This document shows positions 11,245 to 38,970 of a DNA stretch of 64,000 nt, one piece after another. The notes beneath the pieces are model-generated. The model was given only the letters and a program-made list of their open reading frames with translations. It did not search any database and was not told where the DNA came from. A program made the position numbers and the translations under genes. Numbering within the stretch: position 1 is the stretch's first letter; each line of letters opens with the position of its first letter. Origin of the DNA: a bacterium (GTDB lineage Bacteria; Sysuimicrobiota; Sysuimicrobiia; Sysuimicrobiales; Kaftiobacteriaceae); contig DASYRL010000067.1 of the NCBI GenBank assembly GCA_036004445.1, positions 1,499 through 65,498 of the forward strand. The letters run 5' to 3'.

Positions 11245-11358
11245 CTACGCGCTCTTCTTCTCAGCGTGGGCTTCCTTGTTGTGTTTGTCGAGTTCCTCCT
11301 TGGTCTTGAACTCCATGTTGCACTGAGGGCAACTCAGTGAGGTCGTCTTCGGTTCCAT
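11245..11358 (-). CDS. possible independently translated C2H2 zinc-finger mini-protein (37 aa), in frame with the oxidoreductase
   Basis: MEPKTTSLSCPQCNMEFKTKEELDKHNKEAHAEKKSA. Internal ATG 11358 is preceded by AAGGAGGTG with a 5-nt spacer. Confidence 0.4.
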   Translation of the reverse strand: MEPKTTSLSCPQCNMEFKTKEELDKHNKEAHAEKKSA

Positions 11359-12768
11359 GGCCCACCTCCTTTCTCCGATCTTCTCCGGTGCGATGTTCCG
11401 GAGGAGTGCGCGTGCCGTGCCCTCCACGCCCTCCTGCAGCGTCGGGAAGATGCCCACGGCTGTGGCTAGGTCGTCGATGGTCCCGCGACGGCGCATTACG
11501 ACGATGGCGTCGTAGATGAGATTGGCCGCATCCGGTCCCACGATGTGACAGCCTAGGATCCGCCGCGTGCGGCGCTCGGCGACGAACTTGATGACGCCTG
11601 CGGTTTCGCCAATCAGACGGGCCATTGAGACCTGGGAAAACTCCACCGTCCCGGTGACGACGTCGTGCCCGGCCTCGCGGGCCTCTGGCTCGGTCAGACC
11701 GACGCTGCCGACCTGCGGGTCGGTAAAGATCGCGTGCCCCAGCGGGGCCCGGTCGACGCGCCGACCCGCGCCCTGAAACGCGTTGCCAAAGGCGATCTTG
11801 CCTTCTTCCTGGCAGATGCGCGTGAACGGCTGTTTTCCGTTCACGTCGCCGATCGCCCAGATGCCCCGCGCAGTGGTCTCCAGGAAGTCATCCACGACGA
11901 CATAACCGGCCTCGTCGGTCCGGACGCCTGCCGCGGCCAGATTCAGCATCTCGGTATTCGGGATCCGGCCCGCAGCGGCCAGGAGGTGTGAGCCGGTGAC
12001 GGCCAGCTCCCGTCCCCCGGCGTCTGCCGCAACAGCCGAAACGTTGCCGTGACCGTGCCTTACGCTCACCAGGTCATGGCCGAGCCTGACCGTGATGCCT
12101 TCAGCGGCGAATGCCCCCGCGATGACCTCGCTGACCGCCGGGTCCTCGCGGGCCAGGAGGCGGTCTTTGCGGTGCAGGATCGTCACGTCCGCGCCGAACC
12201 GACGGAACGCCTGCGCCAGCTCGCATCCGACATATCCACCGCCCACGACGATGAGGTGTTCGGGAACCTCCTGCAGTTCCATGATGGTCTCATTGGTCAG
12301 GACCAACTGCGGATCCAGCCCAGGAAGATCGGGCATCCGCGGCCGCAGTCCGGTGGCGACGAAGATCGCCTCAGCGGTCAGCATCCGGTCGCCAATGGCG
12401 ACCGTTCGCGGGCCGGTAAAGCGCGCGCTGCCCTCGAACAGGATCAGCCCTTCGGCCTCGCGCGCGTGGCCGAAGGCCTCCTCACGATGGTCCTCCACCA
12501 GAGCGCGTTTCTCGCCGATGATGGCTTTGAGGTCGACCGACGTGTCCCAGGTCCGGACATGGTAGCGGGCCGCCGTCCGGCACAGATGCGCGATCCGTGC
12601 CCGGTGGATGAGGAACTTGCTGGGCACACAGCCGGTATTGATGCATGTACTGCCGTACGGGCGCTTGTAGATCAGGGCAACCCGTTTGCCCGCGTCCAGC
12701 GCCAGGCCCGCGACAACGGTCCCAGCCTCACCCGCACCGATGACGATAGCGTCGAAATTCGCGTCCAC
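11245..12768 (-). CDS. FAD-dependent pyridine nucleotide-disulfide oxidoreductase (dihydrolipoyl dehydrogenase/mercuric reductase-like) with in-frame C2H2 zinc-finger tail
   Basis: 507 aa. GAGEAG FAD motif, redox disulfide CINTGCVPSK, dimerisation domain. The last 37 aa form a C2H2 finger. Confidence 0.85.
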   Translation of the reverse strand: MDANFDAIVIGAGEAGTVVAGLALDAGKRVALIYKRPYGSTCINTGCVPSKFLIHRARIAHLCRTAARYHVRTWDTSVDLKAIIGEKRALVEDHREEAFGHAREAEGLILFEGSARFTGPRTVAIGDRMLTAEAIFVATGLRPRMPDLPGLDPQLVLTNETIMELQEVPEHLIVVGGGYVGCELAQAFRRFGADVTILHRKDRLLAREDPAVSEVIAGAFAAEGITVRLGHDLVSVRHGHGNVSAVAADAGGRELAVTGSHLLAAAGRIPNTEMLNLAAAGVRTDEAGYVVVDDFLETTARGIWAIGDVNGKQPFTRICQEEGKIAFGNAFQGAGRRVDRAPLGHAIFTDPQVGSVGLTEPEAREAGHDVVTGTVEFSQVSMARLIGETAGVIKFVAERRTRRILGCHIVGPDAANLIYDAIVVMRRRGTIDDLATAVGIFPTLQEGVEGTARALLRNIAPEKIGERRWAMEPKTTSLSCPQCNMEFKTKEELDKHNKEAHAEKKSA

Positions 12769-13586: not shown

Positions 13587-15188
<1,602 letters not shown>

Positions 15189-15196
15189 CCCTCCCT

Positions 15197-15901
15197 TCAG
15201 CCGAAGGCCGCCCGGTACTCTCTCACCGCCTTGGGGCCGTTCCGCTCCAGCGCCGCATAGAAAGCCTCGCGGTCCTGGTGGCGGAAATCCATCCGCTCGA
15301 CGTGGAATGGCGCGAGACGCTCACCCCCTCGGCGCCGGTCCACGACATTGAGGAAGTACTCGACGGCGTTGACGATGCTGGCTGGATCCGTCCAGTCGGA
15401 TTTGTACACGGGCACACCGGAGGCGGCGAAGATCCAGCTCATATTTGGCATGGAGCCGTATGCGCGATGGCAGGCGCCGTCCAGCGCATCGACGAGAATC
15501 GGACGCGTGACGCCGAGCCGGTCGCGCAACGCGCGCGCGTGCCGCAGCTTCTGTGCCATCGAGGTGTGGTGGGGGTAGAATTCGCCCGGATGCGCTTCGT
15601 GCGTGTAGAGGAAGACCGAGCCAACGCCTTGAGGAGCGACCCGCTGCGCGATCCCGTTCATGGATGGCGCCGCCATCCCGCAGTAGGGTCAGGTGAAGCT
15701 CCCAAATTCGACGATCGTGTACGTGTGCTGCGCCCAGATGGCAGACAGGCGCGTCTCGGCGCCGTCTAGGCCCCAGAGCGGGAAATCGGGGGCGGGCTGC
15801 CCGAGCGGCGGGCTTGCGGAGAAATTCAACCAGGGGCCGAACTTCTCAGGAATGAATTCATCGTAGTTGTAGCGGACCAGCAGGGCCGAATCGTTCACCA
15901 C
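15197..15901 (-). CDS. iodothyronine deiodinase-like thioredoxin-fold protein, candidate selenoprotein (in-frame TGA at 15689-15691)
   Basis: ORFs 15689..15901 and 15197..15676 share a frame. Read-through gives APDFPLWG...VEFGSFT-U-PYCG...LYTHEAHPGEF...HRAYGSMPN, 234 aa. Confidence 0.75.
15662..15678 (-). promoter_or_regulatory. candidate bacterial SECIS hairpin
   Basis: RNA GGAUGGC-GGC-GCCAUCC (7 bp, GGC loop) starts 10 nt after the UGA. Confidence 0.55.
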
Positions 15902-15942
15902 AGCCCCTCGCTCCAGGGAAGGATCCGAGATCTCTGCCGCCG

Positions 15943-16098
15943 CTAGTGACTGCCTTCGTGCGCGTCCTTGAGGACGTCTTCCCGCGTAATGTCCCTGCCG
16001 TGCTCTTTCTTCATGTGCTCCTGGGCCTTGCGGACGAGCTCGTCATCCGAATCGGCATGAACCGTATGGCCCATGGCGCACGCCCAATGTCTGTGCAT
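15943..16098 (-). CDS. DUF1059-like small protein
   Basis: MHRHWACAMGHTVHADSDDELVRKAQEHMKKEHGRDITREDVLKDAHEGSH. Start chosen at ATG 16098, preceded by GGAGGTG with a 5-nt spacer. ORF track gives 15943..16170. Confidence 0.55.
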   Translation of the reverse strand: MHRHWACAMGHTVHADSDDELVRKAQEHMKKEHGRDITREDVLKDAHEGSH

Positions 16099-16657
16099 CT
16101 GACCACCTCCATCCGAGAATACGCGTACCATCGTATTGTTGCCGAGCTCGCCGGCCGGCGACTGTAACACGGCTTACACTTTTTGAACCTGGCCGCCGGC
16201 GGCTGAGGCCTTCACCAGGTAACGCGGCCCCACATCTCTATGACCGCCTTCGACGTTCGAGCTGCCCGGCGCTGCCCTTGCGATCAGCTTCTTCTGGCGG
16301 GCGTGGTCGGAGGCCTGCTCGCCACCATGTTCGCCGGGTACGTCTTCTTCCGAAGGTAAGCGCGCTGACAGCCGGCACGGCCCGTCGCGGGGACAATGGT
16401 GTCCGAATCACGGTGGAAGGAGGCGACGGCATGCCCGATCGCGTCCGACCAGGCATTCGCGCCGCGCGTGGGGCTGGTGCATGTGCCCAAGCTGGAGAAG
16501 GCTAGCGGGGATGATCCGGAGAGGCTGTCGTGCTGTGTGGAGTGACAGGAGTGAGAGGCGATACGCGTGCATAGTCGCTGCGATTGCTCTCCTCGGCATC
16601 CTGTCCCTCGCAGCGGCCGGGCACGGCGCGTGAGGACTGGCAACACCGTAAGACCGC

Positions 16658-17260
16658 CTAGCGCGATGGCGGAGGCGAGAACCGGATCAACTCCTCCGCG
16701 AACGTCTGCATCTGCTCAAAGGTCAGCAGGCCGGCGTGCTTGCGCAGAATCCGGCCGTCCGCGGTGATGAACACCGTGGTCGGCATGCCGAGGATCTGGT
16801 ATGTGTCGGTGATGTCCTCGTCGAACACCGTCCCCGCCGGATAGCGGATGCCCAGGGTCCGGAGCAGCGCCTGTCCCTCCTCGCGGGTGCCCAATCCCGT
16901 GTAGGGCCCGACGTCGATGCTGATCAGCACGAACCGATCTCCGGCCTGGTCGGCCAGCCGCTGCAGGTCAGGCATCTCGGCGCGGCACGGCGGGCACAGG
17001 CCGGCGAAGAAGTTGACGACGACGGGCTTTCCCCGCGCCCACACCTGAGAGAGTCGAACGACGTTTCCCCCGACGGCCTCGGCGCCCTGGTACATTCGAA
17101 TCTCGATGTCCGGCGCCCGGGGGAGGGGTTGTCCGGCCGGCGCAGAGGGGGGTGGCCCCTCCGTACGCGGAGGGCCGATGAGGCGGATGACCCCGACGGC
17201 GACGAGAAAGCTGCCGGCGAGGAGCAGCAGCCAGAGAATGAGGCGACGCTGTGCGGACAT
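16658..17260 (-). CDS. TlpA/ResA-family thiol:disulfide oxidoreductase, membrane-anchored
   Basis: 200 aa. N-terminal TM helix, then a redoxin fold with FFAGLCPPCRAEMP. Confidence 0.85.
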   Translation of the reverse strand: MSAQRRLILWLLLLAGSFLVAVGVIRLIGPPRTEGPPPSAPAGQPLPRAPDIEIRMYQGAEAVGGNVVRLSQVWARGKPVVVNFFAGLCPPCRAEMPDLQRLADQAGDRFVLISIDVGPYTGLGTREEGQALLRTLGIRYPAGTVFDEDITDTYQILGMPTTVFITADGRILRKHAGLLTFEQMQTFAEELIRFSPPPSR

Positions 17261-17332
17261 GGGAAATAATTCTCCGTCGAACAGAGTATCATCAATCGAG
17301 AGGACGGTTTCAGTAAGACAGGAGACAGATCG

Positions 17333-17566
17333 ATGGCCAAGTCCGTAGTGCTCTACTCACAGCCGGGCTGACTGTTCTGCGGTAAGGTGAAGGAGTTCCT
17401 TCACCAGAAGGGTGTTGCCTTCGAGGAGAAGGACATCAGCCGCGACGATCGGGCCCTGGATGAACTGCTCGAGAAAGGGTTTCAGGCCACGCCCGTGACC
17501 GTCATCGACGGCGACGCGGTGGTAGGATTCAACAAAGCCAAGCTCGAGGAGCTGCTGGGCCGGTAG
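17333..17566 (+). CDS. glutaredoxin/NrdH-like protein, candidate selenoprotein (in-frame TGA at 17369-17371)
   Basis: Not in the ORF track. MAKSVVLYSQPG-U-LFCGKVKEFLHQKGVAFEEKDISRDDRALDELLEKGFQATPVTVIDGDAVVGFNKAKLEELLGR. AGGAGA lies 7 nt before the ATG. Confidence 0.8.
17386..17405 (+). promoter_or_regulatory. candidate bacterial SECIS hairpin
   Basis: Perfect 8-bp stem GGUGAAGG / CCUUCACC with loop AGUU, starting 14 nt after the UGA. Confidence 0.7.
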
Positions 17567-33310: not shown

Positions 33311-33350
33311 TTTCCCCTACGTGTTAGGATAGAAGCGACAACTACAGACG

Positions 33351-33487
33351 ACCTTCGGGGCAGGGTGCGCCCGTTCGACGTAGCTCAGGGCAATTCCCGA
33401 CCGGCGGTACAGCCCGCTACCCGCCGATTGCGGCGGTGGATCCGGTGTGATTCCGGGGCCGACGGTATAGTCCGGATGGGAGAAGGT
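33351..33487 (+). promoter_or_regulatory. FMN riboswitch (RFN element) aptamer
   Basis: P1 ACCTTC (33351-56) / GAAGGT (33482-87). Conserved CTTCGGGGCAGGGTG, ATTCCCGACCGGCGGTA, AGCCCG, GGTGGAT, GCCGACGGTATAGTCCGGATGGGAGAAGG blocks. Upstream of ribU. Confidence 0.85.
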
Positions 33488-33497
33488 CAAACTTCAC

Positions 33498-33581: not shown

Positions 33582-34130
33582 ATGAGACGGCTCACGCAGG
33601 TTGCACTGCTTGGCGCGGTCGCCTTTGCGTTCATGTACTTCGAATTTCCACTGCCGGGGTTTCCGCCGTACCTGAAGTACGACCCGAGTGAAGTTCCCGC
33701 CCTGATCGCGGCGTTTGCCCTTGGCCCCGCATACGGAGTAGCGGTGGAAGCCATCAAGGCCGTGCTGATCGGCGTGTTCCGCTCGGCCCCCTTGGGCGGG
33801 CCATTTGGGATCTTCATGAATTTTCTCGCCGGCGTCACCCTTGCCGGCGTGGCCGGAGCGTACTATCTGTTCGAGCGCACGAAAGCCGGCGCGATCAAAT
33901 CCCTGATCATCGGCGTGCTGGCGATGTCCGGCGTCATGATCGTCGCCAACATCGCATTGACGCCGGTCTTCTTTGGCATACCGCGCCCGCAGGTCATCGC
34001 CCTGGTCCTCCCGGCACTCCTGCCGTTTAATCTGCTCAAGGGCGCCATCAGTTCTGTGGCGACCTTCTTCGTCTACAAGCGGGTGCGGGCGTATCTCTAC
34101 GAGCGTATTACGGATAGAGCCGCGTGGTGA
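33582..34130 (+). CDS. ribU: ECF transporter S component, riboflavin transporter RibU-like
   Basis: 182 aa. FEFPLPGFPPYLKYDPSEVPALIAAFALGP motif. Directly downstream of the FMN riboswitch. Confidence 0.8.
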   Translation: MRRLTQVALLGAVAFAFMYFEFPLPGFPPYLKYDPSEVPALIAAFALGPAYGVAVEAIKAVLIGVFRSAPLGGPFGIFMNFLAGVTLAGVAGAYYLFERTKAGAIKSLIIGVLAMSGVMIVANIALTPVFFGIPRPQVIALVLPALLPFNLLKGAISSVATFFVYKRVRAYLYERITDRAAW

Positions 34131-38087: not shown

Positions 38088-38264
38088 CCGGTCCTCTCGA
38101 ACGAAGTAGTCTGCCTTCCTATAGGTTCCTCGCTCGCCGCAGTGGGGGCACGTATGGTAGTTCGCTGCCAGCGTCCCCTTCTCGAAACTCCGCCGGTCCA
38201 ATCGGAGCGGAGTCTCAAACTCTCGTGCGCATGCTTTGCACGCAACCGTAAGACGCAGTTTCAT
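38070..38264 (-). CDS. small zinc-ribbon protein (hypothetical)
   Basis: 64 aa. CKAC...CPHC pairs. The C-terminal VTRDS is encoded by the heptamer repeat. Confidence 0.45.
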   Translation of the reverse strand: MKLRLTVACKACAREFETPLRLDRRSFEKGTLAANYHTCPHCGERGTYRKADYFVREDRVTRDS

Positions 38265-38283
38265 GGGTTATAGTAATCGTAGC

Positions 38284-38970
38284 ATGGCGTTTTTGAACCC
38301 GCAGGACGCCGAGTTCATCCGCAGGCGGTTCGCCTCCGAGCTGAAAGGCGACGTTACGCTGGAGTTTTTCGCTCCGAGCGCAGGGGGCCTCGTGCTGCCC
38401 GGACAGGACGGGGAGACGGCGGAGTACACGCGCAGGATCCTTGAAGAAGTGGCCGGCCTCTCCGACCGGGTCCGCCTCACCGTACACAGCGTCGTGACGG
38501 AGCCGGAGGTCGTCCGGCGGTTTGGGATCGAGCGCACGCCGGCCATCGCGTTTGTCGGTGCGGAAGATTATGGAATCCGATACTACGGGATTCCCGGCGG
38601 GTACGAGTTCGCCACCCTGCTGGAACTGATCATTGCCGTCTCGGTGGGCCGGGCCGACATCGCCGAGTCCTCAAAGGACGCGCTTGCCCGGCTGAAGGAG
38701 AGCGCGCACATTCAAGTCTTCGTCACGCCGACCTGACCGCACTGTCCGCGCCCGGCCAGGCTGGCCGGCCTGCTGGCCATCGAGAGCGCGAAGGTCAGCG
38801 CGGACATCGTCGAGGCCAGCGAGTTCCCCGAGCTCGCGGAGCGATACGCCGTCTATGCGGTTCCGAAGATTGTCATCAACGACGACACCGAGTTCGTCGG
38901 CGCCCAGCCGGAAGCCCACTTCGTCGCCTACGTGGCCAACGCGGCCGGTGTCGAAGAACCGGCCGGATAG
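38284..38970 (+). CDS. glutaredoxin-like/protein disulfide oxidoreductase (PDO, two Trx-fold units), candidate selenoprotein (in-frame TGA at 38734-38736)
   Basis: ORF 38236..38736 continues in frame: ...HIQVFVTPT-U-PHCPRPARLAGLLAIESAKVSADIVEASEFPELAERYAVYAVPKIVINDDTEFVGAQPE...*. TAG at 38968-38970. Start at ATG 38284 is tentative. Confidence 0.75.
38752..38768 (+). promoter_or_regulatory. candidate bacterial SECIS hairpin
   Basis: CCGGCC-AGGCU-GGCCGG (6 bp, loop with GG), starting 15 nt after the UGA. Confidence 0.55.

Follow-up and report, generated by a model that had tools for sequence, protein, structure and literature searches.

The window analysed here, a 64-kb stretch of DNA from contig DASYRL010000067.1, carries on its minus strand a gene of 234 codons in which a TGA stands at codon 71, within a thioredoxin-fold active-site motif, and is followed by a short hairpin (Table 1). 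The initial annotation had read two minus-strand open reading frames (ORFs), 15689..15901 and 15197..15676, as parts of one frame separated only by the TGA and four sense codons (CCC TAC TGC GGG), giving the product ...TIVEFGSFT-U-PYCGMAAPS...LYTHEAHPGEF...CHRAYGSMPN..., where U is selenocysteine (Sec); the sequence agrees with both the coordinates and the translation, which amounts to 234 amino acids (aa). The gene starts with GTG (15899-15901) and ends with an ordinary TGA stop (15197-15199), and residues 2-234 are covered by tblastn in 80 related loci. The active-site stretch of the read-through protein is EFGSFT-U-PYCGMAAPSMNGIAQR. The N-terminus of the window protein (MVNDSALLVRYNYDEFIPEKF) contains no hydrophobic segment, and no signal peptide or membrane anchor was found in it or in those loci where the start is fixed by an upstream gene. 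Taken with the analyses below, these data make it very likely that 15197-15901 functions as one gene and encodes a cytoplasmic selenoprotein from the bacterial deiodinase-like branch of the thioredoxin/peroxiredoxin (Trx/Prx) fold.

Table 1. Coordinates of the selenoprotein gene, its elements and the associated genes (positions in the window unless a locus is named)
Feature	Position	Strand	Basis and remarks
Complete selenoprotein gene, deiodinase-like thioredoxin-fold protein (predicted)	15197..15901	-	234 codons; sequence, tblastn, Cys homologues
Selenocysteine codon TGA (predicted), U71, first residue of U-x-x-C	15689..15691	-	conservation, Cys homologues, Dio3 alignment
Cys74 (TGC), presumed resolving cysteine of U-x-x-C	15680..15682	-	invariant in 81/81
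SECIS hairpin, 17 nt	15662..15678	-	5′ arm 15672-15678, loop GGC 15669-15671, 3′ arm 15662-15668; spacer 15679-15688 = 10 nt
Y99-T-H-E102-A-H104-P-G-E block	15581..15607	-	corresponds to Dio Y197/E200/H202, loop-D edge; aligned to Dio3 YIEEAHPSD
P110-H-H112-T-S block	15560..15574	-	corresponds to Dio3 P217-Q-H219-R-S
C144-H-R-A-Y-G-S-M-P-N, most conserved block	15443..15472	-	C144 subfamily-specific; H..YG common to deiodinases
Glutaredoxin-like gene, MAKSVVLYSQPG-U-LFCGK...	17333-17566	+	TGA 17369-17371; hairpin 17386-17405
Two-domain protein disulfide oxidoreductase, VFVTPT-U-PHCP	38263-38967	+	TGA 38734-38736
Convergent neighbour DUF3179, Cys form (FCPLC at 14424-14438)	13983..15188	+	Pfam DUF3179 6e-109
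MerA-like FAD pyridine-nucleotide disulfide oxidoreductase	11245..12768	-	NCBIfam PRK06370 417 bits, MerA 402 bits
Sec DUF3179 sites in related loci	L005 4349, L019 4341, L040 1243, L051 4265, L067 4292, L070 2193, L071 4281, L076 3293, L035 8825 (rc)		

Related loci were collected by scanning one genome per species, which gave 202 relatives, and the best 80 of the 202 were analysed. A stop stands at the Sec column in all 80 of them (77 read as the codon TGA, and three as an in-frame stop in the translation only), and the TGA-bearing loci span many genera. The locus of the window itself has been assembled independently in three Joint Genome Institute (JGI) metagenomes. Resequencing was a check that the initial annotation had named, with TGC or TGT as the outcome contrary to its proposal; all three assemblies carry the same TGA, so that sequencing error is excluded. 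Of the 1,540 proteins returned by a homologue search, most by far are 154-159 aa long, which is the size produced when a gene caller restarts after the TGA, and a query made of the N-terminal 107 aa gave hundreds of matches, almost all of them fragments of 69-70 aa ending at the TGA. In GenBank and JGI annotation the gene is systematically split, its two parts (69-70 aa and 154-159 aa) each being called a 'hypothetical protein', as in the adjacent records HBY92374.1/HBY92375.1 and MCZ7570281.1/MCZ7570280.1. Such pairs, together with an ATG that lies four codons past the TGA, could be taken to indicate a genuine stop, in which case the locus would hold genes for two small proteins, of 70 aa and 159 aa, or else represent a pseudogene or a fault of assembly. 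This explanation is effectively refuted, because the halves are adjacent and in frame in 80/80 loci and form one Trx fold, the break falls within the active-site motif, full-length cysteine (Cys) homologues exist, the downstream hairpin is selected only alongside TGA, and the three independent assemblies concur. Two separate genes were likewise rejected in view of the full-length Cys homologues, the conserved in-frame halves and the one shared fold.

Cys homologues aligned at the TGA column, which the initial annotation had proposed to look for, were found at two levels of divergence. Three close full-length homologues carry Cys there, namely P0001 (codon TGT) and P0009 and P0029 (both TGC), and so do 21 of 31 diverse full-length representatives, while Sec is kept in nearly all the close family members. 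The exhaustive profile search used the 159 positions after the TGA, most input rows being truncated, and nevertheless recovered diverse full-length relatives; clustered at 50%, its hits gave 1,050 representatives, of which 481 had E <= 1e-10. A clade has leucine or phenylalanine at the Sec column (L081 1320-2042 with TTA, and L082/L083 6001-6735 with TTC; contigs of 54% GC), and it keeps C74, C144 and the relay residues described below, with a degraded selenocysteine insertion sequence (SECIS). One further homologue (L084, 666-1385) has TGG (Trp) at the column and an intact hairpin; the change, seen in one contig, is probably recent and reflects either a mutation of very recent origin or an artefact of assembly or sequencing.

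The 7-bp hairpin with a GGC loop that had been noted ten nucleotides (nt) past the UGA, at 15662-15678, is present as described (GGAUGGC-GGC-GCCAUCC). It was compared across 78 sequences in a codon-anchored alignment. When the 7-bp helix was imposed on all of them, 99.1% of the cells were paired, vs 28-60% in the control in which the 3′ arm was slid; compensatory (double) changes occurred at three of the seven pairs, in 11 cells, and the observed values were reached in only 0-1 of 500 shuffles. The compensatory pair changes needed coordinated amino-acid replacements: Met..Ser to Leu..Ala turns an A-U pair into C-G, and Gly..Ser(TCC) to Ala..Ser(TCG) turns a G-C pair into C-G. Four-fold degenerate sites are frozen within the element (columns 30 and 33 are G in 78/78), whereas just outside it they vary freely. 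The loop sequence is G(G/U)C, that is, GGC or GUC, with an invariant G as its first base. The hairpin is weakened in the TGT homologue and lost in those with TTA, TTC or TGC, where the otherwise invariant GCG GCG has drifted, the TTA and TTC forms now reading GCC GCC. These comparisons support the hairpin as a selected RNA element that matches the bacterial SECIS pattern and lies inside the ORF. The fdhF-type SECIS of Escherichia coli is reportedly a minimal 17-nt upper stem-loop about 11 nt past the UGA, whose small apical loop contains G/U (Liu et al. 1998; Zhang & Gladyshev 2005). The window hairpin is similar to it in being a 17-nt stem-loop within the ORF, in its 10-nt spacer and in the leading invariant G of its loop; however, it has a triloop rather than a loop of 4-6 nt, and no bulged U.

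Two further genes of the window contain an in-frame TGA in a U-x-x-C context. With read-through, the glutaredoxin-like (Grx-like) gene matches TIGR02196 (GlrX_YruB) over a longer stretch, profile positions 2-73, and its score increases from 52 to 73.5 bits; a hairpin of 8 bp with the loop AGUU begins 14 nt past its UGA, and the TGA is present in three independent assemblies. The read-through product of the two-domain protein disulfide oxidoreductase (PDO) gene passes the equivalog cutoff of NCBIfam TIGR02187, PDO_seleno_TRX (226.8 vs 185), and the fold downstream of its TGA is not distinctive (z -0.3). These two genes suggest that the host very probably decodes Sec, and Sec use has been documented in Chloroflexi/Chloroflexota (PMC1794560, PMC13326102). 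Decoding of the UGA of the deiodinase-like gene as Sec is considered well supported by the comparative sequence evidence. An alternative is read-through outside the Sec pathway, by near-cognate insertion of Trp or Cys at the UGA or through a reassigned code, with the hairpin as a generic stimulator; this could appeal to the TGG homologue with its intact hairpin and to Sec machinery not having been seen in the 762 kb of window plus loci. However, TGA is the ordinary stop of 9 of the 25 well-annotated window genes, including the end of the selenoprotein gene itself; therefore the genetic code is standard, and reassignment of TGA was rejected. Moreover, the UGA stands at the catalytic Cys/Sec column of the family, the distance, size and loop G of the hairpin fit the bacterial SECIS pattern, and the two other U-x-x-C genes of the window belong to recognised selenoprotein families, all of which makes non-Sec read-through highly improbable.

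The deiodinase likeness that the initial annotation saw in FGSxT(U/C)P and in the downstream blocks was supported by an alignment to mouse Dio3 and by profile matches among the relatives. When the family profile was searched against all PDB sequences, mouse Dio3 (4TR3) came first (E 5e-5), with U on Sec170 (FGSCT-U170-P), YTHEAHPGE on YIEEAHPSD and AYG on AYG. The Pfam family T4_deiodinase, PF00837, is passed by the close Cys homologue P0029 (31.6 bits) and matched by 29 of the 31 diverse relatives at E <= 1e-3 (best 4e-18); therefore the subfamily is a divergent branch of the group that PF00837 recognises. EFGSFT-U-P is invariant in the close family. The proton relay of deiodinases comprises, in Dio3 numbering, S167, T169, Y197, E200, H202 and H219 (PMC11592359), and the counterparts S68, T70, Y99, E102 and H104 are each invariant in 81/81 sequences. 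The counterpart of H219 in the window protein is H112, within a PxH[RT]S pattern that recurs throughout the 31 diverse relatives; among the close members His occurs at 111 in 75/81 and at 112 in 16/81. C144 and H145 are found in 81/81 and R146 in 80/81, and in the wider relatives the C144 column is mostly V/I and H145 is kept in 29/31. The AlphaFold2 (AF2) model of the natural Cys homologue P0001 (predicted local distance difference test score, pLDDT, 79) has a Trx/Prx-like fold with a helical C-terminal extension; the active-site motif lies just ahead of helix 71-90, and both halves of the protein form one Trx fold, on which U71-P-Y-C74 is a redox pair at the CxxC position. The counterpart of loop-D, between the EAHP and PxH blocks, is nine residues shorter than in Dio3, with pLDDT <50 at residues 104-111 of the P0001 model. 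A Foldseek search with this model returned Dio3 third and Dio2 eleventh. On sequence grounds we assign the protein to the bacterial deiodinase-like family, within which it forms a divergent subfamily, because the relay residues are conserved and 29/31 relatives match PF00837.

It could also be argued that the protein is simply a Sec-using member of the Redoxin, AhpC-TSA or TlpA type, with the ordinary activity of a thiol-disulfide oxidoreductase or peroxidase, and that its deiodinase likeness merely reflects shared Trx-fold ancestry. With U replaced by C, the protein passes the Pfam thresholds of Redoxin PF08534 (33.1 bits, threshold 26.6) and AhpC-TSA PF00578 (30.2 bits, threshold 26) and falls below that of T4_deiodinase; U-x-x-C is the classical CxxC position; ResA and TlpA structures, at TM(target) 0.80-0.83, and Prx-like structures match the model as well as Dio3 does; and the neighbours include TlpA-like, Grx-like and flavin adenine dinucleotide (FAD) disulfide reductase genes. 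Nevertheless, the Prx motif PxxxTxxC(U) is absent, V64-E-F-G-S68-F-T-U71 having Ser instead of Thr at -3 and Val instead of Pro at -7; the protein has neither the signal peptide nor the anchor of TlpA/ResA; and its best profile match among solved structures is Dio3, with which it shares the EAHP and AYG blocks that the Prx-like 2YWI does not have. An ordinary redoxin is regarded as rather unlikely.

Several results weigh against the reading of the gene as a deiodinase-like selenoprotein. The initial annotation had claimed SECIS-like geometry for the hairpin, and although geometry and covariation uphold the claim, the fold energy is unremarkable: the 71-nt region folds no better than its shuffles (z -0.69). 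It is the comparative data that give the hairpin its significance, thermodynamics alone being insufficient. When the window was scanned with Rfam at gathering thresholds, the hits were limited to an FMN riboswitch and a tRNA, with no model over the SECIS. No tRNA-Sec was detected by ARAGORN and Rfam in the 64-kb window or by ARAGORN in the 762 kb of window plus loci; no selA, selB or selD was found among the approximately 30 window ORFs (Pfam/NCBIfam) or in the related loci; and a tblastn search of the 762 kb with an approximate E. coli SelD query found nothing. Absence of the Sec machinery is expected, because the sample consists of small pieces of each genome. The protein itself, with U replaced by C, scores 23.0 bits with PF00837, under the gathering threshold of 27, and its sole NCBIfam match, NF038285 'deiodinase family protein' (deiodinase_rel; profile positions 174-324 of 347), reaches 48.4 bits, far under the cutoff of 250. 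The fold search cannot separate Dio from the uncharacterised Prx-like proteins 3U5R and 2YWI or from ResA/TlpA, which are statistically tied. The Leu/Phe clade has a dN/dS of 0.14, indicating purifying selection, and therefore, at least in that clade, some function survives without a redox residue at position 71. Finally, the chemistry, the reductant and the substrate proposed below are inferred.

In the proposed mechanism, the UGA would be read as selenocysteine, with the 17-nt hairpin probably recruiting SelB and its Sec-tRNA(Sec). Sec71 would sit at the N-terminus of the first Trx-fold helix, the position of the deiodinase Sec and of the catalytic Cys of Prx and Trx, and its selenolate may react with a substrate that is oxidising or electrophilic, with peroxides, disulfides and halogenated aromatics as candidates. 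The resulting intermediate would be resolved by Cys74 to an intramolecular selenenylsulfide, and a thioredoxin system or an FAD disulfide-reductase system could re-reduce the enzyme. The deiodinase-type network (S68, T70, Y99, E102, H104 and H111/112) may donate a proton to the leaving group. A narrower version of this explanation, rather than a contradiction of it, is a true reductive dehalogenase. The halogen of a halogenated phenolic would be abstracted by Sec71, the ring carbon would receive its proton from the relay, and Cys74 would take the part that the distal resolving Cys plays in the animal enzymes. Conservation of the deiodinase relay (S68, T70, Y99, E102, H104 and PxH[RT]S) rather than the Prx PxxxTxxC, the match of 29/31 relatives to PF00837 and the retention of Sec by nearly all close members are consistent with it. 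Nevertheless, the activity is hypothetical; Arg275 and Cys239 of Dio3 have no conserved counterpart in the alignment; the loop-D counterpart is shorter and modelled at low confidence (pLDDT <50, residues 104-111); and the genomic context consists of stress and redox genes rather than aromatic catabolism, with a haloacid dehalogenase neighbour in only 3/80 loci. Dehalogenation proper is regarded as improbable.

Most of the 80 loci come from Chloroflexota metagenome-assembled genomes (MAGs), of Anaerolineae, Ardenticatenaceae, Caldilineaceae and Chloroflexia, with a few bins labelled otherwise. Their neighbourhoods are variable, with three recurring associations: DUF3179 proteins, extracytoplasmic function (ECF) sigma/anti-sigma pairs and FAD disulfide reductases. 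DUF3179, an uncharacterised family catalogued among the selenoproteins (PMC13188914), is the commonest neighbour of the family and occurs within approximately 5 kb in 26/80 loci. DUF3179 proteins have either a membrane anchor or a lipoprotein signal, the window copy having an N-terminal transmembrane helix; the AF2 model of that copy has a pLDDT of 77, and a fold search with it against PDB gave no match at E <= 1e-3, only a weak likeness to Rieske-type beta-sandwiches (E >= 0.015). In nine loci, DUF3179 paralogues near the deiodinase-like gene have a TGA in VTW-U-P[I/L]C, followed 13 nt past the UGA by a conserved hairpin (CCGGUC, an 8-nt loop and GACCGG). The end of the Sec DUF3179 gene lies on the same strand 5-90 nt upstream of the deiodinase-like gene in seven of the nine loci; the gap is 1,064 nt in L076, and the gene is on the opposite strand in L035. 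This looks like a two-selenoprotein pair, of which no description was found in the searchable literature. A third conserved partner near the pair, such as a CcdA/DsbD-type shuttle, was sought and none was found.

In seven to eight loci (L006, L023, L024, L038, L057, L063, L069 and L012), an ECF sigma gene (Sigma70_r2/r4_2) followed by a gene for a small HxxxCxxC protein, which is anti-sigma-like and has no Pfam match, lies directly upstream on the same strand; the small gene and the deiodinase-like gene are 14-40 nt apart, except in L012, where the distance is 101 nt. An HMA-domain MerA is encoded 142 nt downstream in L038. MerA-like FAD disulfide reductases are near the gene in seven to eight loci, and the MerA-like protein of the window, which scores under the equivalog cutoffs of both MerA and PRK06370, is a candidate partner for regenerating the reductant. 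That protein also has an unusual C-terminal tail, ...SCPQCNMEFKTKEELDKHNKEAH, resembling a small zinc-finger or metal-binding motif. Other neighbours include TlpA-like and Grx-like genes. A role in thiol, oxidant or electrophile stress is tentatively suggested, because the context consists of operons with ECF sigma and HxxxCxxC anti-sigma genes, FAD disulfide reductases and other CxxC/UxxC proteins.

Two observations concern the surroundings of the gene in the window. A small DUF1059 protein is encoded at 15943-16170 (-; Pfam 2.9e-6), 41 nt upstream of the selenoprotein gene and on the same strand, and the two may be co-transcribed; DUF1059 was not found beside the deiodinase-like gene in the 80 other loci, and a promoter/terminator scan of 14900-17450 gave nothing usable. 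Further along, the FMN riboswitch (Rfam RF00050, 99 bits) lies at 33347-33491 (+), upstream of the ORF 33582-34130.

The Sargasso Sea metagenome provided the first report of a bacterial 'deiodinase-like protein' selenoprotein (PF00837, UxxC) (Zhang, Fomenko & Gladyshev 2005; PMC1088965), and the deiodinase-like UxxC family is listed in catalogues of 2022 and 2026 (PMC9312934, PMC13188914). The initial annotation had held that the cellular role of these proteins is not established, with which the literature concurs (PMC1088965, PMC13188914). The window protein shares with the catalogued family its bacterial origin, the Trx fold, a single Sec in U-x-x-C, a SECIS right after the UGA, the existence of Cys homologues and a presumed redox function, and its diverse relatives are recognised by PF00837. 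Going by its description, the catalogued family, represented by MFL2763324.1 and MBO99264.1, probably includes the window protein. The latter differs in scoring below the PF00837 threshold and in belonging to a divergent subfamily dominated by Chloroflexota rather than marine plankton; the invariant C144-H-R, an N-terminal RYNYD..W extension and a helical C-terminal tail of approximately 60 aa are its own, and no NCBIfam model captures the subfamily. The 2026 catalogue also lists a 'Redoxin family protein' (PF08534, UxxC) and a 'Prx-like thiol:disulfide oxidoreductase' (PF00578, UxxC) (PMC13188914). These resemble the window protein in the two Pfam domains found above threshold, in U-x-x-C and in the fold; however, their labels are those of generic Trx-fold domains, which do not include the EAHP, PxHxS and H..YG blocks of deiodinase type. 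The catalogue entry HEU0032618.1 is a possible member of the window protein's family.

With the animal deiodinases Dio1-3 (4TR3, 9H48), the window protein has in common the Sec at the equivalent structural site in FGSxTUP, the relay network, the AYG block and the Trx/Prx-like fold. It lacks their N-terminal transmembrane anchor, has a shorter loop-D and is approximately 19-20% identical to them. It has a Cys at +3 (U-x-x-C), whereas Dio has UPPF and the distal resolving Cys239; no counterpart of Arg275 is seen in the alignment, and thyroid hormones are not expected substrates. Taken together, the finding is best rated as a divergent, Chloroflexota-dominated subfamily of a category already known, the bacterial deiodinase-like UxxC selenoproteins. 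What it adds is the systematic nature of the mis-annotation, the clean covariation of the SECIS, the conservation of the deiodinase relay and the links with DUF3179 and ECF sigma factors.

A more far-reaching reading, which we consider a long shot, is that the deiodinase-like selenoprotein and DUF3179 form a two-component selenium-dependent system in Chloroflexota that has not previously been described. An exported or lipoprotein DUF3179 would act together with a cytoplasmic enzyme that retains the whole deiodinase proton relay and carries out cofactor-free reductive dehalogenation, or another reduction of electrophiles or metalloids, with a redox-sensing ECF sigma/anti-sigma pair as the regulator. 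Were this so, bacterial deiodinase-like proteins and DUF3179 would gain their first function.

The finding extends a known category and overturns nothing in current understanding. Thousands of public records split the gene in two, and a model of the subfamily combined with its regular SECIS would mend the annotation of Chloroflexota MAGs. With its compactness and covariation, the 17-nt SECIS offers an unusually clean case from nature for SelB recognition beyond Proteobacteria and Firmicutes, and the pairing with DUF3179 and with ECF sigma/anti-sigma genes provides testable leads for two uncharacterised families. In this family, bacteria without thyroid hormones keep the catalytic apparatus of the animal deiodinases, which offers a good handle on ancestral deiodinase chemistry.

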